Shown: positions 3,493 to 56,975 of the stretch, piece by piece
How positions within the stretch are numbered: the stretch's first letter is position 1
How the letters are laid out: the number at the start of each line of letters is the position of its first letter
Source of the DNA: Eledone cirrhosa
Lineage: Eukaryota
Direction: 5' to 3'
Length of the DNA: 64,000 bases
Assembly: GCA_964016885.1 (NCBI GenBank)
Contig: OZ024755.1
Span: 15,500,001 to 15,564,000, forward strand
Notes under the pieces: model-generated
Seen by the model: the letters and a program-made list of their open reading frames with translations, nothing else
Database searches by the model: none
What the model was told of the DNA's origin: nothing
Made by a program: the position numbers and the translations under genes

Positions 3493-4553
3493 AACTTTGA
3501 ATAACTTTGAAATGTTTTGGCCAGTATTGGCCCAGGCCATGTCTAACTTAATAGCACCACCTGGCGAAGTCTTTCAATTCAGGATTTGGGCACCATGGCC
3601 CATTCGAGAAGAGAATTACTGTTTGCGGAGACATATCCGGGTGTGGGTGGTTTGTCCGGGATTACTTGCAGGTATTTGTCCAAAGACTTCTTGAATTTTG
3701 TGTGGTCAGTTTCTGTTTTGACGTGTCCTGGTGTGATGTTGAAGAGAGCCAGGCCGATTGAGGCGAAATAATTGTGCTGTATTGTTGTTATGAGTTGCGA
3801 TTTAGATTTTTGAATGGGACGGATAGCACGGGGCCCAAGCCTTGGGTGTATCTTGAAGGCGATGCCAACATCATTTGGGCAGTGATGATGGAACATTTTC
3901 CACATCATGCAGATAATATAACGCTCACGGCGACGTTGGAGTGAGTAAAGTTTCAGGTTTTCTAATCGACCCCAGTAGTCAAGGTCTGACATGCCATCTA
4001 TCTTTTTCGTGATTGCCCTTTGAGGAGCTTCAATTTTCATGATACTTTGTTTCGTGTGGGGAGACCACAGTGGACAACAGTATTCAAGGTGTGGTCGGGC
4101 AAAAGTAGAGAAGAGAAGGATAATGGTGCGGGAATCTCTCGACTGGAAGGTTCTGAGGATCCAGGAACACATTCTGCGGGCCATGTCAACTTTGCTGCTT
4201 ATATGCGTGGTCCAGCTTATGTTGCTGTCCACGGTTACTCCCAAGTCTCTGATGTTGTTAGATGCCACGAGAGTTTCCCCGGAGGGAAGGGAGTACGGGA
4301 GTTTCAGAGCATCCTCTTTTCTAAAGTGGATCAGTTCGAATTTGTCTTCGTTCAGTAACATGTTGGTCTTTTCTGCCCATTGGGTAACAGCCAGTAGGTC
4401 TGACTGAAGGCTTATCCGGTCATCCACGCCATTGATGACCTTTTGGAGCTTGGAATCATCAGCGAAAATTTTAATGTTGCTGTGTTTGATGATGTCAGTG
4501 ATGTCATTAATATAGATGATGAAGAGAAGTGGGCCCAACACAGTGCCTTGTGG
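3491..4553 (-). mobile_element. 5'-truncated CR1/L2-group non-LTR retrotransposon (RT C-terminus, 3'UTR, tandem tail)
   Basis: ORF 3579-4541 (-) gives [61 protein letters not shown]. The 3' end has a small hairpin and a 2x ttcaaagtta tail. Flanked by (TA)n on both sides. Confidence 0.92.
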
Positions 4554-4592
<39 letters not shown>

Positions 4593-4786
4593 GATGTATA
4601 TATATATATATATAGATGTATATATATATATATATATATGTGTATATATATATATGTGTAATATATATATATGTGTATATATATATGTATGTATATATAT
4701 ATCATATGGGTATATATATATTATATATGTATATTTGTATATATATATGATATATATGTATATAATATATGTATATATATATATAG

Positions 4787-4850
<64 letters not shown>

Positions 4851-5020
4851 GTATGTGTATATATATATATATGTATATATATATATGTGTATATATATAT
4901 ATATGTGTATATATATATATATATGTAATATATATATATATGTCTATATATGTGTATATATATATATATATGTCTATATATATGTCTATATATATATATA
5001 TATGTCTATATATATATGTG

Positions 5021-7831: not shown

Positions 7832-8545
7832 CTCAGAATCAGATTGTGACCTTCGAAATTTCCTCTTCCATAAATTGCTTCCAACTGTGTTAAACCAAGG
7901 GTCGAAGATGTCAAGAAACAGTCATGGCACTGACTCCTTTTGTCAGATAGTCTTTGTCAGACATAATAGCTTCTGACAGTTTTGTAGCCAAATCGGTAAT
8001 TTGCTTAATGATTTCCCGCCAAAATATTATATTCCCATGCTCGATGCGTTCTTTGTTTAATATATATATATATATATATTTGTATCATATCAGTTAGGTT
8101 TTCGGAGGCGATATGTCAGGTGGCAAGCACACGACCATACAGCACGTTAACTGTTTATCAGAATAAATGCATCTAATTCGATTACATTTCTTTGATTCTG
8201 TAAGTTCGTCTATCGGGGTTGTTTGCTTACGTATGTAAATTGTCAATTTTCCCATTTCTGTAGATTAGTCATCGGAGATATATATATATTATATACGAAA
8301 TTCAAAAATGCCATGGATATTATATGTGTGCGTCTGCGTATGTGCATATATATCTGTGTGTATATGTGCATATAGAGAGAGAGAGTATGTATGCATACGT
8401 ACATACATAATTACATACATACATGCTCAACTACGCCATTATATATATATAGTGGTGGAACACTGGAAGGTAATATCCGTAGTGGTAGAGCACTCAGTCC
8501 ATGGGACGAGTTAGGTAGAAGTGGTTACACAACAGTTAGTTCACC

Positions 8546-8603
8546 ATAACGAGAACAATTGTTTCACCTTAGCGGATCCTCAGCTCGGAATGGGAATGGT
8601 TAT
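8546..8603 (-). ncRNA. Type I hammerhead ribozyme in Penelope pLTR
   Basis: Minus strand reads ataa..cgag-CTGAGGA-tcc(gctaa)ggt-GAAA-caattg-TT-ctcg-ttat: intact core, palindromic stem III (acaattgt), stem I cgag/ctcg extended by ataa/ttat past an internal loop. Confidence 0.78.
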
Positions 8604-8750: not shown

Positions 8751-9510
8751 TCAGTCCGGAGCCTTGCAGTTATGCAATAGGTGTTTGGCGACGTGTGGAC
8801 AACGTGTGAAAAATTCATTTCTCGTGTTTAGGCAATCACTATTGCGTAATCTCTTTAGAATAGTTATTCGTTTGTCAATACATAAGCCACACGTCGGATT
8901 TCCCCTTGCGTATGGCTTGGACTTAGTGATGGCTTTCCATTGAATGGAGTAGTCTATACTTGAGTCCTTGAGGGACCATAGGTGGCTCGCGAGTTTCGTG
9001 GATGAACGTCTGTTCGGGTACCTGAAGGTAGACTGGTGGCTCAGGAAACGTTCCTTAAATCGGTCCTCCGCCATGTCCACATAGGATTTGACCTCCTGTG
9101 GTTTGTTTGGTCGGTTGGAAGTGACCACAGCTTCATAAATTGCAGCTGGTGTGTTGTATTGCTGTTGAAGGGGGCAAGCTTCAGGCTTACGGCAAGAGCA
9201 CCCTGGTGGGGTGTTGCTCCTAGGGCTGCTGGTGATGTAGGTCTTCATGTTCTTAGCGCAGGAGTATCCTAGTTTTAATTTGTGTCGGTTAAAGATGGAG
9301 CGGTATTTATGACCTATGGGAAAGTGTCTATCTAAGAGGGCTAGAGATTTTTTTCCTACATTGGTTTTAACGTTGAGTGAAAAGGGAGGAGAGAATCAGA
9401 TAGTTTGTCTATTGTTGCGTATACTTTTCTTAATGTTGCTAGTGGGAGAATAAGTGATAGGTTGTGAGAAGCCGCTGTTAGCCGTGTTATAGTAGGGTGC
9501 CGCCGTGTAT
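8751..9510 (-). pseudogene. Penelope-like RT-thumb/linker/GIY-YIG remnant
   Basis: ORF 8751-9248 plus upstream in-frame sequence interrupted by a TGA at 9396-9398, a position I expect to be Trp. Confidence 0.85.
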
Positions 9511-46265: not shown

Positions 46266-47126
46266 GACTTGCTATTTATTATGTTAAAAGCCATCAAATT
46301 TCCTAATATATATTATATTTGTTCGTTTAATTCATTTATTGCGATGCTTTAGGTTATTCTATATAGTTAATTATAAGAAGTGGAGGAATAAACACAAATA
46401 TGTGATATTGGATCTAGATAGAGTAGTGTGTATGTTATTTTTTCTTAGTGCTAATTTTGACGCCTCCTCTGTGAACCTCTTGACTATATAATGACAGGTG
46501 GGGGGGGGGGGGGCTCATTTTATATCTAGTAATGTAATTACGTTAATTAAGTAAATAAATTAGAAAGCTACATTACGGAATCCGTTCAGCTTCATGTATG
46601 TTAGAATGTTAAAGTTATTTTATGGATCAAATATTACAATTTATGCTTATATCTCATTTATACTTTAATGTTTAAACAAGTTTTTATATTTTCTTAGGCA
46701 ATTTAACAAAAGGTTAATCTATTGGGTTGATTTTTCTGGGTTTAATGTTGTGGGGGAGAAATATATTGCAATGCATTGTCTATTAACAAGAAAACACGTT
46801 CCGTCATTAGTGACAGCAATGAGGTTGAATGTTTTTAATTTATTGAAGTCTAAGATTAAAATGACATATATATGAGGATTATCAGATATATAAAGATTAA
46901 TGCAAATTAGAAATTTGCATTTTGATAAATGAAGTAATACATCTATGTATATATGTGTGTGAAAATGTCAGACATTACCGTTTCTGAGTAAGTTAACGTT
47001 AGGGAAGATGAATAACAACCTAGAAATACTAATATTTGGGGTTCTCATACGGCACACAAAATAGCAGTGACTTAAGCTTAGAAGATTCATACTAAGACTT
47101 ATTTATGTTTATTATACATAGAAATT

Positions 47127-47318
47127 GGGCGGTGGATTGGCAGTATCGGTAGAGGCTCGGACGCCATGCTTTGACGCATAGAGTTCCGGCCCTTGACATT
47201 CTGAGTTCAAATCCCGCCGAGGTTAACTTTGCCTTTCATTCTTACGGGGTCGATAAAATAAAGTACCAGTAAAGTACTGGGGTAATTGCTGGCCTTGTGC
47301 CAAAAGTAGAAACAATTA
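47127..47318 (+). mobile_element. Full-length young family-1 tRNA-derived SINE
   Basis: gggcggtggattggcagtatcggtagag..gagttcaaatcccgccgagg + core + tail; closely similar to other copies. Confidence 0.93.
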
Positions 47319-47376
47319 TATATAAAAATTGTAAATGCTTTCATATACGCAATTTTAGTGCTTGTTAAACACACAT

Positions 47377-47409
<33 letters not shown>

Positions 47410-47410
47410 C

Positions 47411-47601
47411 GAAAAGAGTTAGGAACCCGACGGCTGAGCTCCGGCCGTTTCGACAGCTAGATCCGAACTAGCTGTCGAAACGACCGGAGCTCAGCCGTCG
47501 GCGACCTGTTTCTTTTCCTATTACCCACTCTACTACCCTAAGTATCGACTACTCTGGTGCGTTATGGTCCACATGGTCCTTACCACACTTTCTTTGTTAT
47601 A
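47411..47601 (+). mobile_element. Palindrome-headed approx. 190-bp element, copy 1
   Basis: Arms 47427-47460 and 47468-47501 (33/34 match, weaker extension outward). Unique tail cctattacccactctac..ctaagtat.ga.tact.tggtgcgttatg.tccac.tggt.ccttaccaca..tt.gttata is shared with 55214-55410. Confidence 0.85.
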
Positions 47602-48785
47602 AATATATATATATATGGTGTGTGTGTGTGTCTATTTATCTCATTTCCTCTAAATAAATATACACACGTATCTATCTACACACACACACACACACTCGTG
47701 TGTGTGTGCACGCGCGCGCGATTGTATGTGTATCTATCTATATATCTAAGTATCTATGCGCGCGGGATTGACAGAGAGGGATAAAGGTGAGGTGTTAGTA
47801 CCAGAGCCGAGGAAAATGGGGAGAAATTCATCTATAACGCTGAACAATCATTGCATACATGAAATATAATTACTATGTAGTGTTCCATCTAATTATCTCC
47901 TGGACCCCCATTTCCACATAACGGATTCCTATATCCTGAGATACATACATATACACAGAAATAACCGTACACATATATCCAAATATACGCATACATATAT
48001 ACACGTATGAATGTCTATATGTATGTCTATATGTATGTCCATATGTATGCCTATATGTATGCCTATATGTCTGTCTCTCTCTATCTGTATATATATATAT
48101 ATATATATATACATAATATATGTATGCGTATGTATATATATATATATATATACATAATATATGTATGCGTATATATATATATATATATGTTTGAATGTCT
48201 ATAGGTATATGTATGTATATTTGTATCGCTTACTCAGTAAGAAATATGTGTATGTGATTGTTTATGGACTCAAGTTATATGTGTATAATAAATATATATA
48301 TATATATATATACACATATATATAGATGTGCGTGCGCGTGTGTATGTGTTCGGTCTTCCTATCAAACCTGAGTCTTGCGTTTCTACAGAATTCTAAATAT
48401 ACAGTTTTACGTAGCTCATTACATACAGGATGTAATGGCTGATTTGTCAGAGTATGAGAATTTTCACTTCCTTAATTATAATCTAAAATTTACAAGCGCA
48501 AACTTTGTCTCTCGAACACCATCATGTGGCTTCTCTCTACACCACACAGACTGACAGAGCATGCGCAACATCACATATAGAGATGTATCTCAGAATTTGT
48601 GAAAGCTATGCACTAACCTACACACACATTTCTTCTAAATAAATACTAACTTGTACATCCTTTCATACTTCCACACAATAGGATTCTACATGATGTAATT
48701 TGAACAACAACACAAATCTGAATCATGCGTGTCAATGTAATGATACAACTAATAATAATTATATTAATAATATTAATAATAATAG

Positions 48786-48979
48786 TAGGCACAAGGCCAG
48801 TAATTTGGGGTGCAGGGGAAAGTCGAATAAATTGACCCCAGTACGTGACTGCTACTTTATTTTATGGACCCCGTAAAGATGAAAGGCAAAGTTAACCTCG
48901 GCGGGATTTGAATGCAGGATTTGAACACAGGTCGTAAAAGGTTATCCGACGCTTTACCGATACTACCAATCTGCCGGCC
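48786..48979 (-). mobile_element. Family-1 SINE within a (TAA)n tract
   Basis: ggcacaaggccag..gatgaaaggcaaagttaacctcggcgggatttgaa..ccgatacta.caatc. Confidence 0.88.
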
Positions 48980-48989
48980 TAATAATAAT

Positions 48990-49963
48990 AATATAGCAAA
49001 GAAACTCCAAACCGAGGAACTAAACCGTGAATGGAAGGCAAAACCACTACATGGTAGATTCCCAAAACGACTTTCTGACAATGATATCGATCAGCATGGC
49101 TCACTATCCTGGCTGAGAAGTGCTGGTTTGAAAGCAAAGATTCAAAGACTCTTAGTTGCTGCACAAGACCAATCTCTAACACTCGGACCTATAGACACAG
49201 AATAACAATAGGTGGGACTAGCCCTCTATGCAGAATATGCTACAAATACGAAGAAACTGTCGATCATGTTATATCCGGATATCATACAGAAAGATACAAC
49301 CGCATTGCCAAATATGTGCACTGGATGCTCTACCGCTTTTATGCCTTCCAAATCTCTGAAATTGTATGAACATCAACCAAAAACCGTCATAGAAAATGAC
49401 AACATATCCATCTTGTGGGATATGCATATGATAACTGACCGAGAAATCGCTGCCTACAGACCAGATATAAAAAATAAAACAGATCGGATATGTAGCCTTA
49501 TAGATATTTCTGTAACAGCTGAAAAGAATGCACCTGTAAAAACAATGGGAAAACTGTCAAAGCACAAAGACCTGGAAATAGATATCAACCGCATATGGTA
49601 ATAGGATCACTAGGATTAATACCCAAATCATCAGGCCCTCACTTTAGCGTCCTTCCCAGCAAGATCAGCAAATATGAGCTACAGAAGATCGGGCTACAAG
49701 GAACAATTTGATCAGAGCCCCACCAAAGCTAAGTTCACTACCTAAACTCACTGATGTTCCACAGGATGTGGAGGTTATAGTGTCTATACATGGTGATGAT
49801 CGTGTACACCTGTGTTTCCCCAACCACCAAACTCTTGGTCACACTTGCCAACCTATTTTTTAGCACCTTAGCCAAAATCTTAAGGTCTGTTCGCTCCCAC
49901 TCGTCTACTTTAGAGGTTCAGATCGATTAGGGTAGCTGTAAACCTAACAAGATATTAATAATA
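48990..49963 (+). mobile_element. 5'-truncated R4/Dong-type RLE non-LTR retrotransposon
   Basis: WKAKPLHGRF..SLSWLRSAGLK..LLVAAQDQ.L; CRIC..EETVDHVISG (zinc knuckle); YEHQPKTVIEND..ILWD..TDREI..RPDI..LIDISV..K..KHKDL (PD..D..K RLE nuclease); IGSLG. Starts and ends in TAA runs; the 3' boundary is uncertain. Confidence 0.85.
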
Positions 49964-51942
49964 AGTATTTAATTTTTCCTGGAATATTTACCAAAAATAA
50001 CCTGTCAGAGGTATACCATTTTGCTCTCATATTTAACTGTCCAGATTATTTCTTAGATAACTAAGTTAATTTAAAAAGAAATTCGTGGATTACATTATTT
50101 TGTAGTGAAATATACATCCGTTTTGTGTATTTCCACTTAACATTTGTTTGGCTTCCATTAACATAATATCTATATAAGAAACTAAACTAAATAAAACAAT
50201 GGAATCTTATTTAAAATATTTCCTAGATTCAATAAAAGAAAATATATGGTGATAGAGTATAGTTTTATCGTTTCACTGACATTTTTAAAGTAATTATTTT
50301 TCCAAGAAGCATTGTGCTTCGCTTTTTCTTCATTGTATTTTAATGCTGCAATATTTCAATTTATTTTTAAGTTTACACATATGTATTGTTTTCTATTTCA
50401 TTTCAATTTTCCTCCTTTGTTTTATATAATATTGTTTGTTCGAATAAAATATGTGTGTGGGGGGGGGGTCTTTTCTGTCTGTTTTTCTCTATATATCTTC
50501 TTCCAAAATTCGCCTTGGTTTTGTTAATGATACTTTGTATACCGTTTGTCAGAGGAGGAATAATAGTTAATTTTAACTGTAACTTGATATCCACGGTATC
50601 ACTGCTTTCTTGTAGATTTCTTGATTCTTCTATATGTCTTTCAGAAAACCATAAAAGATATTTTGTACGACACGCCATGATTTGTTGAGAGTATAAGTCA
50701 GATTTTACGACTGCCAGCAAGTTTCATCCGATCTGACCAGCACGGTTAATAGAGAAATTGAATTTTGTCTGAGATCGCCTGACTGAAAAAGTAAATTAAC
50801 GAAAAGAAATATTGTCTCCCTCTCAATGTTGAAGGCTTATATTTTCTTATAGGTAATCTGATCTTGTTTACTGCGGTTTGAACCAGTATTTCTCGTATTA
50901 TTTATAGCTGTTGAACATGTACGTAGCATTGATGAACAATCATCTTCCAGTTCCACAAATTGACGACTGGAAACGAAGAAAATAATAAGCACAAGAAGAA
51001 AAATAACAAAAGCGAGCAGGTCGTTCTGGCATTTAATCAATGTAATACACTTAGACTGAGAACTGGGTGGTGTGTGCAAAGGATATATTTTAAGGCTTCT
51101 TAAATGATAGCTTTATCAGGCTAAAGTAACTATAGTGAGACCGCAATAATAACAGATATGTCATTAAGTATCATTTAATCATTTTAGCTGAACTGTTTAT
51201 AATGACAGTGGAGATTGTGTCCTCAGTTAACGTATAACTGTAATATGTTATGCTTCTTCGCGAGGACACTTGATGAAATAACTTAGGAAAATGGTGCAGA
51301 CTTTACAACCATTTGGTGCTAGAATCATTATTCTGTGTCATATGAATTGAATTAATATGTGAAAGGTGCAGCTGGTCAAAGCGTGTTCATTGGAATCCTG
51401 GTCGACGGGTCATCTCTTTCCATTCTTTTACCGATACAGTATCTCCTTTAAAAAGCGACAACAAAATACGATCTGTCCATGGCCGTTTAATTTGACATAG
51501 GCGATATATAGATGTATGAATTACATGACTGAGATTTGTGAGAACGCTGTATAACTAATTAATGTTTCTTTAGTTTTTATTACTGAGAGTGATGGCTTAG
51601 TCGCTAGAACAATATTTCTGTTCCGTACCTTCCGAGTTCAAATCACGATCAAGGCAAATCTGATGTTCATCCTTCCGGGATTATTAAAGGAAAATATTAA
51701 ATTAAGTACTGTGTGGATTTAATGAGCTGGCAATTTTCTAAGCGTGGGCCCATATTAGAATCTAGTATCTAAACTCTTTCAGGGACTAAAACGTATGATT
51801 AAGTGAGCTAGTAATTCTGCGTAGCTTAGAGCTTCAGAAATTAGGATAAGCGGCTCTAAATAATATATTTCACCAAGCATTTCTCCGACTCTTTAACGAC
51901 ACTGACAATACACCTTTCTTTTACTATTCATAATGGCTTCGG

Positions 51943-52103
51943 ATTTAGGCACAAGGCCAACACTTTTGGAGGAGGGGATAGTCGATTAAATCAACCCCAG
52001 TGCGTTACTGGTACATTATTTTATGCTCCTGTAAGGATGAAGGCAAAACTAACTTCGGTGAGATTTGAACTCAGAACGTAACTATACTGCCAGTTCACCA
52101 CCC
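51943..52103 (-). mobile_element. Family-1 SINE, degenerate
   Basis: ggcacaaggcca..gtcgattaaatc.accccagt..actggtac..aggatgaaggcaaa..gatttgaactcagaacg. Further degenerate copies near 7150, 44860, 51590, 52525, 52845 and 62900. Confidence 0.8.
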
Positions 52104-54344
52104 TCATGTTATTGATTTTTCATAGCAAATGTATCTCAATCACCTTTTTACTATTTAATATTTCATTTTATTCTTCTTATAGGAAGGTTTTTTTTTTCTG
52201 GTTTCATTCTCAACAGATGTTTTATGTCCTACAACCAAACTAATGGTAAGAGATTTATTGCTGCTACTCAGCACTGTCGAATATCAAGGGAAATAAATAG
52301 GGGGTTTAGAAACCTTACAAAAGGCATGGATAAAGTGTGACATGTCCAGACAAACAATTTTAAGATTTATTAGAAGAAATAAAACCAATTATCATTTAAA
52401 CCATTCGTTACCATAATTCTAACAAAAAAACTTGCATGTGATTTTCAAACCATTTTGAAAATACACAAACATTTAAATGCATTGAGTGATATAACTAAAT
52501 TTCTCATTATCTATCTAGTATTTGAGGGCCGTAGATTGGTAGTATCGTTAGTGCATCGGGCAATATACTTCACAACATAGAGTTACGGCCCTTTACACCA
52601 GTGTGCCTAAATCAGAAACCATTATTAATTTAATAATTGGGACATAATATTCGTACATATCATTATTATGGAAGTTATTATTATTATTATTAGACAAATA
52701 AAAATATTCTATAATAAACACTTTTGTATCATAGGACGAGTGCTGGTGTCATATGGTTTCTTAGAGTTAAAGCATCGAGGATGTGTCATACACTTGCAAA
52801 AAATTATGTTACTTACTTTTAGTTTCTTTTTAGGAATTGATCCCAGGACTGGTTTGGTACTTTATTTATCAACCTCGAAAAGGTAATAAGCAGAGTTGAG
52901 CTTGGTGGGATTTCAATTAAGAGTGCAATGCACAGAAAAAATACCGATGCATTTCTTTAATTCGCCGCTGTAACGAACTGCCAATTCGCCGCATATTATG
53001 ATTACTAAATAGCAGAAGACATATTTACACTATGACTCTATTTGTCATATTTAGCTGGCAAAAATGAGATGGATTATGTATCAATGGAACTTCCCAGGAG
53101 GGAGTTCTACTCTATCCGACAACACGTTAAGAAAACGAAATACAAAATCTGAAGTTAGTATAAGTTCGGTATAACAATAGAGGTGAATTGGAAGAAAAAT
53201 GTGAAGAAAAATCAAACTGCAATATTTTGACCGCTGTAGATATTTAATAAATGTATGACTCACACTATATTTTCTTTTGAGGAGTGAATGTTGAATATAG
53301 AAGTGTGTTTCTATTAGATATAGTTGAGGACAGCTGAAACCAACTGTTCTTTGTGTAGCACAAAACTATTTCCTAAACAATAGTGAGCTAGCAAGAAAGA
53401 AAAATCGTTTATACAAATACCAGAAAGAAATAAAAACAAAATGGCTTGCAAAGCAGGTGAAAAATAAAATTGTTTGTAATGGAATGGACACCAAAGTATG
53501 ATAAAAAATATATATATACAGTGGATGGGGGACTGAACGAAAAGAAAAGAAATATTTTGATCTGAACTAATAGATAATTAATAATATGAACCGAAATCCG
53601 ATCAATGAATGAGAAATTACTGCCGTGCAATATTAATGTTTCGAACCTTTGTTGATAATGAGTGAATCAATGGCGAACAGTGGCTCTTTTAATAGGGTCG
53701 TTATTATAACATTCGGAGTAAGAATTTAACAATTTATGTAAATGCACACAAGCTTCATAGAAAAATATAAGATTTCGTTTTGTTGCTGGCTCGTGTTATT
53801 TTCTATTTTCGTCATTGTAAATTTGTTTTCTCACTTTTTGGTTAGATCTTTTATTATTATATTTCTCGCTTCAAAGTAGATTTATTGAACATGTTACTAT
53901 TCTCTATCAAAGCACGCACGGAAGAGTTATGGTGACTGCAACATAAGGTTTTCATTCCGTTTTAAAATTTAACTCCGCTTGTTTTGGAAACAAAATATGT
54001 ATTTCAAACAAAGCTCATTGTTCATACATCAATCTGTTTGCTATTTTTTATTTTATTTAGTTGTACTTTGTTTTAACTACCACTCTCCCTATACACTTCT
54101 TTGTGTGGCTTCTTAAAAACATAGCCTTTTTAGTAACGTTTTTTTTCATAACTTGGTACAAACATGAAACAATTCTCCTCAATTACTCCTCGAACCTATA
54201 GAGAAATATCAACTATCTGACAGGGGGGTTCCTTGCTCTAGCGTGTTCGACTCACAGCTACATTAGATATCTGTCAGAGTGGATACAAATGCCTTTCATT
54301 TGTAATAAATCAAAAATAAACTGGTCTCATTGTCTTCCACATAG

Positions 54345-54565
54345 AGGTGGGGGATTGACACTATTGGTAGAGCGTCGGACAACATGCTTTGTGACATATA
54401 ATTACGTCCCTTTATGTTCTGAATTTAAATCCCGCAGAGGCTAACTTTGCCTTTTATCCTTATGGGTTCGATACAATAAAGTACCTGTAATGTACTCGGA
54501 TCGCTTTAATCTACTTTCCTCTCTCCAACAATGTTTGGCCTTGTGCCCAAATCAGAAACCATTAT
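54345..54565 (+). mobile_element. Family-1 SINE, full length, diverged
   Basis: ggattg.ca.tat.ggtagagcgtcggac..aaatcccgcagagg.taactttgccttt..ggccttgtgcc. Confidence 0.87.
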
Positions 54566-55162
54566 CCTCTACATAGGAACGAATAGGCGTTGTAGAAATA
54601 AAAATATCATCAACAAAATTAAAACTCGAAAGTCGACAAATACTTTCCTAATACCAACTACAACACTTACAATGTCTGAATTGCTAACTGTTATAAACAT
54701 ATTAGAAGCAGGTGTAACACATCGACTACATTCCAAACAACACAATCTACATGATCCAGTAACAACAACAAGACAAAAATATCTAAAACATCAAACACAA
54801 TGCAGCGATAGTAGGAAATATAACAAAAGTTGTCGTTCCCAAACACGTTCTCAGGGAATGAATTTGTAATCTGAAAATAGTTGACATTCTAACATGAAAA
54901 CATTGGTTGTCTTCAATTGTTTGAATATTGTATTGTCGACTTCTTTGAAGTTCAATTACATTCGCTGTTCTGGCGTGGCATCTATGACAGAATAATCAAT
55001 CAAATGCCTGGATCGATTACAAACAAAAGAATCGATACTAGAAATAACAACGTTCCGTTTTAATTTGTTTGAACGTTTTAACGAGTCATTACCATATGGT
55101 CTTGCACATCTATTTAATATATGCGTTATTTTTGTGTAGTTGTATACAGGTATATATGTACA

Positions 55163-55213
<51 letters not shown>

Positions 55214-55218
<5 letters not shown>

Positions 55219-55406
55219 AACGAGTAGGACCCCGACGGCTGAGCTCAAGCCGTTTCGACGGCTAATTCGCTAATGAATTAGCCGTAGAAACGGCTTGAAC
55301 TCAGCCATCGGGGTCCTACTCGTTCCTATTACCCACTCTACGACGCTAAGTATTGAGTACTTTGGTGCGTTATGCTCCACCTGGTTCCTTACCACATTTC
55401 CTTCGT

Positions 55407-55410
<4 letters not shown>
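55214..55410 (+). mobile_element. Palindrome-headed approx. 190-bp element, copy 2
   Basis: Arms 55214-55268 and 55275-55329 (52/55 match), loop gctaat; same tail as copy 1. Confidence 0.88.
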
Positions 55411-55440
<30 letters not shown>

Positions 55441-55479
55441 AAGAGAGAGAAATAGAGAGAGAGAGAGAGATATAGAAAG

Positions 55480-55625
55480 GATAAAAAGGACGATTGATTA
55501 TTCCTTCATTGCATTTATTGATAGGTGACGCGCGTTTCGCCACTGATCAGCTCAAGGTTCTATCTATATCGATCCTACCCGACTCAATAATCGGCAGCTC
55601 GACGGACCCTCTTAAAATGCTATTT
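55480..55625 (-). mobile_element. pLTR-like island with partial hammerhead motif
   Basis: Minus strand reads ctgatca-gtggc-GAAAC-gcgc-GTC-acctatc-AATAAA: palindromic stem III and GUC site, non-canonical 5' core. Confidence 0.4.
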
Positions 55626-55947
55626 TAAAATATATATATACATACTATATATACATACTATATATATATATACATACTATATATACAACATATATATATA
55701 TACACATACTATATACACATACTATATATATACATACTATATATACATACACATACTATCTATATATATATACATACTATATATATATACTATATATATA
55801 TATATACACATACTATATACACATACTATATATATACATACTATATATACATACACATACTATCTATATATATATACATACTATATATATATACTATATA
55901 TATATATATATATCCAGGGTGTGTAACTAGGAGTTACTGCAGGTTCC

Positions 55948-55992
55948 AGTCACTAAAGAGGTCACAGAATGTGTGACGAAAGAACTTTGACA
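55948..55992 (+). ncRNA. Hammerhead motif, copy 2 of the 26086 family (core mutated)
   Basis: gtca-CTAAAGA-g-gtcaca(gaatg)tgtgac-GAAA-g(aa)c-TT-tgac; G-to-A change in the CUGA core. Confidence 0.7.
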
Positions 55993-56044
55993 ATATATAA
56001 ACAACAATCTGGTTGTGGAACCAACCAACCAACCAGAAATTTAT

Positions 56045-56173
56045 AATAGTGTATATATATATAGTGTATATATATATATATATATATATATAGTGTATAT
56101 ATATATATATATATATATAGTGTATATATATATATATATATATATCGTGTATATATATATATATATATATATA

Positions 56174-56217
<44 letters not shown>

Positions 56218-56975
56218 TATATATATATATATATATAGTGTATATATATATATATATATAGTGTATATATATATATATATATAGTGTATATATATATATA
56301 TATATAGTGTATATATATATATATATATATATAGTGTATATATATATATATATAGTGTATATATATATATATATATATAGTGTATATATATATATATAGT
56401 GTGTATATATATATAGTTTATATATATATAGTGTGTATATATATATATAGTGTATATATATATATATAGTGTATATATATATAGTGTGTATATATATAGT
56501 GTGTATATATAGATATAGTGTGTATATATAGATATAGTGTATATATATATATATATATATAGTGTATATATATATATATATAGTGTATATATATATATAT
56601 ATATATAGTGTATATATATATATAGTGTATATATATATATATATAGTGTATATATATATATATATATATAGTGTATATATATATATATAGTGTATATATA
56701 TATATATAGTGTATATATATATATATATATAGTGTATATATATATATATATATATAGTATATATATATATATATATATAGTATATATATATATATATATA
56801 TAGTATATATATATATATATATATAGTATATATATATAGTGTGTATATATATATATATATATATATAGTATATATATATAGTGTGTATATATATATATAT
56901 ATATATATAGTATATATATATATGTATGTATGTATGTATATATATATATATGTATAGTATACATATGTATGTATG
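56045..56975. repeat. (TA)n array with tagtg interruptions
   Basis: Direct reading. Confidence 0.95.

Follow-up and report, generated by a model that had tools for sequence, protein, structure and literature searches.

Penelope-like elements (PLEs) are the closest retroelement kin of telomerase, and their inverted ends, their one-sided tails and the role of their hammerheads are named as open questions by Craig et al. (2021, PMC8557442) and Frangieh et al. (2024, PMC11167929). Copies that are inverted and 5'-truncated, with a tail on one side, are already in the literature (PMC3846280, PMC8557442). In the Hydra clade, which includes Hydra-1_Obim and Penelope-13_HM, such copies occur together with a (TA)n target, a reverse transcriptase (RT) bearing DKT, and, at the C-terminus, a GIY-YIG endonuclease (EN) without CCHH but with CxCX5C, CxxC and CxH; units are generally under 3 kb, tails measure 30-40 nt and the hammerhead is canonical, with CTGANGA as the core and 3-10 nt in loop II throughout the Hydra ribozymes of File S2 of that study (Craig et al. 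2021, PMC8557442). A purified PLE, PAc of Anolis, which is a Poseidon element, cuts both strands, extends both of them and has two internal RT starts that bound the tail (Frangieh et al. 2024, PMC11167929). The minimal hammerheads of PLEs, including that of Schistosoma Cercyon, a published variant with a U3-A8 core, combine type I order and a short helix I with a long bulged helix II, a G10.1-C11.1 pair and a palindromic loop III (Cervera and De la Pena 2014, PMC4209133). Animal non-LTR retrozymes are short, protein-less, PLE-related, hammerhead-bearing repeats, arranged as head-to-tail tandems of whole ribozymes (bioRxiv 10.64898/2026.07.22.740005), and in a plant retrozyme the start lies upstream of the cleaving ribozyme (PMC12029980). 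The main text of a recent octopus repeat annotation mentions neither palindromes nor Hydra (PMC13282606).

Here we analyse two palindromes in a 64,000-nt stretch of the Eledone cirrhosa genome (assembly GCA_964016885.1, contig OZ024755.1, forward-strand positions 15,500,001 to 15,564,000; hereafter the window). Judged by sequence comparison, both are stubs of a Hydra-clade PLE, long copies of which are present in the same genome. Parent positions are counted from the A at the stub 5' edge (+1), which places the short end at +61, the long end at +140 and the first ATG at about +233. We consider it probable that the element consists of head-to-head short copies of the parent 5' end, produced by target-primed reverse transcription from both sides of a (TA)n break and joined at the end of the RNA template. 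What is new is the parent of the stub family and the inferred start inside its ribozyme; the inverted-plus-tail layout was known before. A search of the open-licence literature turned up neither a count of one-short-one-long pairs nor a PLE that starts inside hammerhead loop II.

The parent shares with the Hydra clade the protein motifs just named, the target and the inverted truncated copy with its one-sided tail, but its unit is 3.5-3.6 kb, its tail about 80 nt, and its ribozyme has a TTGANAA core and a loop II of 35-40 nt; furthermore, longer ends are fewer than stubs, which are cut at a single fixed 5' boundary (PMC8557442). The RT stretch printed for Hydra-1_Obim differs from that of the parent, which is thus another family. 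All the features listed above for PLE minimal hammerheads recur in the parent, U3-A8 core included, whereas the very long loop II with the inferred RNA 5' end inside sets it apart (PMC4209133). As in the process that we propose, uncut RNA is the template of PAc and a dimer is predicted; in contrast to the Eledone stubs, 98% of which have one of each end, the in vitro account of PAc gives no strand difference in start and no pairing rule, and PAc starts lie inside the ORF while those of the stub family lie upstream of the first ATG (PMC11167929). The stubs resemble animal retrozymes in the traits named above (bioRxiv 10.64898/2026.07.22.740005), yet they stand head-to-head and carry half a ribozyme, unlike non-LTR retrozymes, and they give no sign of propagation of their own.

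Two Palindromes in the Window

An earlier reading of the letters alone (the sequence-only reading) had claimed two diverged copies of one element, at 47411-47601 (copy A) and 55214-55410 (copy B), each preceded by (TA)n, followed by a microsatellite and headed by a long inverted repeat. All of this was confirmed. In a within-window comparison the copies align over about 200 bp at 79% identity (E 8e-42), and the 64-kb window contains no third copy; (TA)n lies directly left and a microsatellite right of both. The arms pair at 52 of 55 positions in copy B (55214-55268 with 55275-55329) and at 33 of 34 in the inner arms of copy A (47427-47460 with 47468-47501). Of the hammerhead motif claimed for the arm, GAAA, a UC site and a helix III of 4-5 bp whose loop is palindromic are there. 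The right arm of copy B is mutated at two motif positions, 55286 (C to A, before GAAA) and 55307 (G to A), so that the motif as read is the family majority and not the sequence of that arm. Each stub holds only the GAAA half of a hammerhead, the second core box being missing, and an Rfam scan of 46500-56500 gave no hammerhead call in the arms, only generic hairpin models below thresholds.

Copy B is flanked on the left by its (TA)n target microsatellite (55151-55216), in keeping with the TA runs around all 30 top copies of the family. Its short half (55214-55268, minus strand) equals parent +7 to +61, is identical at 55 of 55 positions to one parent end (L269) and would be the cDNA from a proximal start. 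The junction (55269-55274) consists of six inserted bases that repeat part of the left arm; centres vary among copies. The long half (55275-55410, plus strand), presumably the cDNA from a distal start, equals parent +7 to +141, that is, the arm and the 80-nt tail, at 95% identity to L269, and the parent sequence continues from there into the ORF. It contains the 3' half of the parent hammerhead (55279-55314, plus), which is part of an intact predicted ribozyme in parent ends and here has the two mutated positions: helix II 3' strand at 55279-55286, GAAA at 55287-55290, helix III at 55291-55308, the predicted cut after 55309 and the helix I 3' strand at 55310-55314. The first of two similar parent stem-loop motifs follows (55335-55363, plus; parent +67), whereas the stub stops short of the second, at +145. 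To the right, a short TA remnant leads into an (AG)n microsatellite (55410-55470).

Copy A belongs to an older subfamily, AGTTCG, with matching parent ends at L211, L063 and L056. Its short half (47411-47469, minus) reaches parent +1 by parent comparison and has a loose contig end of the same type; its long half (47468-47601, plus) starts at about +10, extends to the end of the tail, has 2 nt in common with the short half and is 84-85% identical to parent copies, with GAAA at 47477-47480 and the predicted cut after 47499. Directly left of copy A lies a repeat (about 47130-47310) which we take to be tRNA-derived and SINE-like.

Several other elements were noticed. The relic of a separate minimal hammerhead, of type I, with a helix III that is palindromic and with AATAAA behind it, lies 100 bp right of copy B (55517-55556, minus); it matches Rfam Hammerhead_1 weakly and is not common to other copies of the palindrome element. 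A Neptune-like PLE RT/EN relic (24488-26142, minus) has 61,914 first-look candidates in the genome, many with long open frames; this family was dismissed as driver of the palindromes, its ends being without palindrome sequence. Adjoining it in opposite orientation is the hammerhead-bearing end of another PLE family (26091-26270, plus), which ends in (TA)n. A Hydra-like C-terminal endonuclease relic (8751-9395, minus) is followed by a hammerhead-like motif at about 8540-8590 (minus), and LINE RT relics occupy 3579-4943 and 19584-20036 (both minus). Outside the window, locus L110 (minus, 5-935) holds four 310-bp units in tandem, each of them bearing a canonical type I hammerhead, and so resembles a non-LTR retrozyme.

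A Genome-Wide Stub Family

The host genome measures 3.0 Gb and is rich in microsatellites. A DNA search returned 3,675 candidates, and nearly all of the 40 that were scored are full-length; in the best 30, both outer ends are identical in position and all 30 lie within TA runs. A pattern over the centre and the tail start has 11,564 exact matches genome-wide, which excludes chance. We analysed the centres of 98 copies read from the first 100 matches listed (the script mis-parsed row L169, and L170 is long+long although scored otherwise). There are 72 distinct centres, 15 of the 98 copies being perfect zero-loop palindromes, and the joints comprise 47 with inserted bases, 27 blunt and 24 overlapping. 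Either half can extend inward to one common word, often followed by A's on its own strand, so that an A-run or T-run may stand at both sides. Thus every copy has a newly formed centre between outer ends that stay in place. The sequence-only reading had expected the reverse, variable arm lengths around one loop. Outward, halves end at +61 (short) or +140 (long), and 72 of the 81 scored short ends are followed by TATA; inward they end near +1.

The two kinds of half are combined according to a strict rule. Matched patterns give 10,387 short+long insertions genome-wide, against 99 short+short and 100 long+long, so that 98% pair one of each; independent choice would predict 5,293, 2,646 and 2,647, respectively. 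Symmetric patterns hit each locus on both strands, of which one was counted, and exact patterns undercount insertions, but not fifty-fold between classes. Kilobase-long insertions behave alike: in a set drawn from the first 30 parent-type ends, 21 ends resolved into 13 insertions (9 were left unplaced), and 12 of these 13 are short+long. A stub half is partnered with a kilobase-long half in just one of the 13 (L270).

At least five subfamilies are present. Both arms belong to the same one in 59 of 64 classifiable copies (20.2 expected), with 5 discordant and 34 of the 98 copies dropped as unclassifiable; about 8 of 50 long+long copies are discordant by eye. The variants previously noted in both arms of a copy are thus real but mark subfamilies, not single copies. 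All but one of the stub subfamilies have a matching parent end among the loci read.

The Parent Penelope-Like Element

An extension behind the tail was sought through a non-T next base, and none is shared among the first 100 of 426 matches; the search missed the parent because its sequence continues with T. The parent was approached from the other side by way of a second family, Y (L085, L049, L075, L019, L056, L023, L008, L043), which has the same lopsided stubs with a whole canonical hammerhead and a helix I that covaries between subfamilies. Its longer copies carry a CCAAT box as well as a TATA box, the latter 30 nt ahead of the stub 5' edge, which lies at helix I. For that reason a TATA word was searched for upstream of the 5' edge of our stubs; it matched 202 times, and in the 100 matches listed certain upstream sequences recur. 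In L199, L224, L229 and L265 the stub tail continues into an ORF.

The unit has a single ORF with RT and C-terminal GIY-YIG (L244, L245, L246, L247), broken by a frameshift or stop in every copy seen, with no unbroken ORF among the copies fetched. The Penelope-type origin suggested by the sequence-only reading is thus borne out. Pfam and PDB searches with the parent protein returned no match, and the assignment is by motifs. DKG is changed to DKT (HSDKTG in all RT fragments read), RWR stands at the place of the Hydra-clade RWK motif near the N-terminus, and the EN fragment of L231, which is C-terminal and lacks CCHH, shows by eye the CxCX5C linker and, surrounding E and N, CxxC and CxH. By eye, too, the protein is clearly like the printed Hydra proteins, although it is not Hydra-1_Obim itself. 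The target is (TA)n, as in the clade, while the size, the variant core and the long loop II depart from its general description. Partial tandems (pLTR) with an inverted 5'-truncated copy and a one-sided tail are found in L244, L246/L229 and L264-266. The repeat before the ORF carries TATATAAA in L244, L246 and L236, and other repeats of the same insertion carry TATTTAAA; this difference within one insertion indicates read-through of a source locus whose two repeats were not alike.

The stem-loop motifs at +67 and +145 each start 5-6 nt behind an insertion end. That at +145 is a minimum-energy fold; that at +67 is not the minimum in L265. Short motifs of the palindrome element are absent from the supplement of Craig et al. 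(2021), and the tail word of the stub family also occurs in family Y, in the coral element Hydra-2_Amil and in a further family, X (L087-L106). The latter is a Hydra-like PLE with a canonical hammerhead, an optional 90-nt tail and a Hydra-like ORF, whose inversion joints fall on a native 14-bp palindrome.

A Predicted Hammerhead across the 5' Edge

The arm had been read as a 3' hammerhead half and the palindrome axis as its loop II, and the parent agrees with both claims. Upstream of +1 it has a helix I 5' strand, a TTGANAA core (UUGANAA in RNA) and the 5' strand of helix II, for which the arm start is the pairing partner; the two helix II strands flank +1 across a loop of 35-40 nt. The parent end thus has the predicted layout of a type I hammerhead, with helices I-III, core boxes, 3-8 pair and NUH site, and the whole layout has 6,185 matches genome-wide. 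Among 44 distinct ends, the core is TTGANAA (U3-A8) in 34 and has a C3/A8 mismatch in 10. Helix II is CGGCTA/TAGCCG in 41 of the 44 and CAGCTA/TAGCTG in the AGTTCG subfamily of copy A, a compensated change that counts as one event. With the core held unpaired, the three-way fold of 10 ends is the free minimum in five, lies within 2.5 kcal of it in three and fails in two. The loose contig ends listed show no pile-up at the predicted cut.

A copy with a CTGANGA core beside a Penelope ORF, which the sequence-only reading had proposed to look for, was not found. A pattern with this core at most 30 nt from GAAA gave 21 hits, and the 20 read are accidents of the centre or junctions to other DNA, two of the latter (L037, L039) linking a stub half to family X; a second pattern gave six, all mutated left arms. 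Such searches missed the parent ribozyme because its core is UUGANAA and its loop II is long.

The Nature of the 5' Edge

We think it quite likely that +1 is the transcription start of the parent RNA, a view resting on patterns in the DNA. All 196 halves of the 98 copies end between +10 and -6, in an analysis that could not see much beyond -20. In two subfamilies, loose contig ends depart from the consensus 2-3 bases beyond +1, and contig depth summed over a parent end, a rough figure throughout, rises about tenfold at +1 and falls some hundredfold after +140; both come from three DNA contig sets of one sample, which are not independent of the genome as they possibly derive from its source sample. 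In the subfamily whose parent predicts G after +1, five of six halves have C, an untemplated base such as a copied cap would give. The other subfamilies have A in 30 halves, C in 5, T in 2 and G in 1; up to three A's are templatable by the parent TTT in most of them, so that the cap signal comes from 10 of 44 halves.

In four loci (L279, L280, L281, L282), head-to-tail units restart at or near +1 after unit ends at +232, +254 (twice), +291 or +1754, with the restart at +1 in L279, L281 and L282. This would be expected of an RT that reaches a genuine end of its template and switches to the 3' end of an RNA. L279 (G000:C1:27009200-27014700, 248-974) has head-to-tail units with the same 3' end, +254, twice. 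Units of this type would be repeated template jumps on one short RNA, or a circle, and are a possible record of how PLE partial tandems originate.

The surrounding sequence allows two readings. All subfamilies seen have YYAGT at +1, a word that is initiator-like in the sense of the general initiator consensus, and most have a TATA-like word at -29, in differing forms (TATTTAAA, TATTTATT, TATTCAWA), which the AGTTCG subfamily lacks. The same boundary also resembles a splice acceptor, with YAG after a T-rich stretch and, in two subfamilies, CTAAT upstream. Thus +1 might be a processing or stop site on a longer read-through RNA, be it a splice acceptor, a nuclease cut in loop II or an RT stop. 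The inconstant TATA-like word suits this view, as do other PLEs with a 5' UTR intron ending at the ribozyme (PMC4209133). We nevertheless hold it to be unlikely: the halves retain the AG and extend at most six bases into genomic upstream sequence, without a common exon beyond; the C behind +1 is untemplated; and thousands of ends read through +1 without interruption.

Origin of the Palindromes

Taking +1 as a transcription start, we propose the following course of events. A capped transcript would begin at +1 from a promoter in the terminal repeat; carrying only the back half of the ribozyme, it would not cut itself at its 5' end, while the downstream repeat copy would be whole. An enzyme dimer would then engage a single RNA at two starts close to its 5' end, each serving one target strand, the distal enzyme would displace the proximal cDNA, and end-joining would unite the two cDNA ends with few bases lost or gained. 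The stubs would be dead by-products, as they are without the upstream promoter part and the second stem-loop. In L1 twin priming, too, a single RNA is primed by both target strands and an inversion results, but there two non-overlapping RNA segments are copied; in the stubs both cDNAs would copy the same segment from fixed sites, hence the palindrome.

The sequence-only reading had favoured a snap-back, in which one cDNA begun at the tail stops in loop II, folds back on the stem II hairpin and copies itself out to +61. It would account for arm concordance and the one-short-one-long rule with no extra assumptions, and self-priming has been proposed for rotifer PLE palindromes (PMC3846280). The copies themselves speak against it. 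Arm ends are fixed at +61 and +140, and 15 of the 98 centres have no loop, with A-runs on both sides. Short halves reach far beyond the 5' end of their long partner in L256 (long +140 to +98, short +61 to -60), L268/269 and L278; contig joints show full short halves joined to mid-tail; in L280 and L281 short halves run on through template jumps; and short+short and long+long copies exist. For the cases listed the snap-back is largely refuted, and as an explanation of the family it is highly unlikely. Two cDNAs, one per target strand, fit the long short-halves, the mid-tail joints and the template jumps, and they agree with the in vitro behaviour of PAc (PMC11167929). These might still be copied from two RNAs, each enzyme subunit having its own and the complex itself setting one proximal and one distal start. 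Indeed, a stub half is joined head-to-head to an end of the Hydra-like element X in L037 (stub long, X short) and L039 (short+short), and together with the five discordant arm pairs among 64 these chimeras indicate that two-RNA events do occur, the discordant long+long copies pointing the same way. Yet 59 of 64 arm pairs are concordant despite the number of subfamilies, and if 5' and 3' sites paired freely between different RNAs, a stub half would often be joined to a kilobase-long one, whereas L270 alone shows this among the 13 resolved insertions. We therefore favour one RNA per event and regard the two-RNA process as rather unlikely, although arm concordance could also stem from one active source at a time or from later conversion.

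A fixed 197-bp unit moving as a MITE-like DNA element or as a hairpin-RNA family, its tip remodelled after insertion, was the other suggestion made from the sequence alone. High copy number and the fixed outer ends of 30 out of 30 top copies would agree with it, but both halves are pieces of an RT-coding parent, the subfamilies with one exception have matching parent ends among the loci read, the two ends are unlike each other and thus not terminal inverted repeats, there are 72 centres in 98 copies, and centres vary even in young subfamilies with near-identical arms; such an origin is extremely improbable. The flip/flop loop of a rolling-hairpin replicon, a Helitron, a DIRS element and a CRESS nick site were dropped, as the centres are variable overlaps of one template end.

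Implications

For annotation, these palindromes are a warning: they resemble MITEs or microRNA hairpins, and searches based on CUGANGA overlook the parent ribozyme. For the biology of PLEs we tentatively put forward, at somewhat less than an even chance, a broader picture. A promoter inside loop II would leave the messenger 5' end uncuttable while the downstream repeat cuts, and each insertion would involve one dimer, one RNA and two stem-loop-marked starts, one per strand; the 10,000 stubs would then be the PLE equivalent of strong-stop DNA, recording the starts and the RNA 5' end. More than 10,000 natural events give a near-absolute pairing rule, with short and long halves combined in 98%, and the stub family fixes three coordinates on the RNA: +1, +61 and +140. 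It also suggests, if true, a simple logic for the ribozyme, which would be switched off by where transcription starts.
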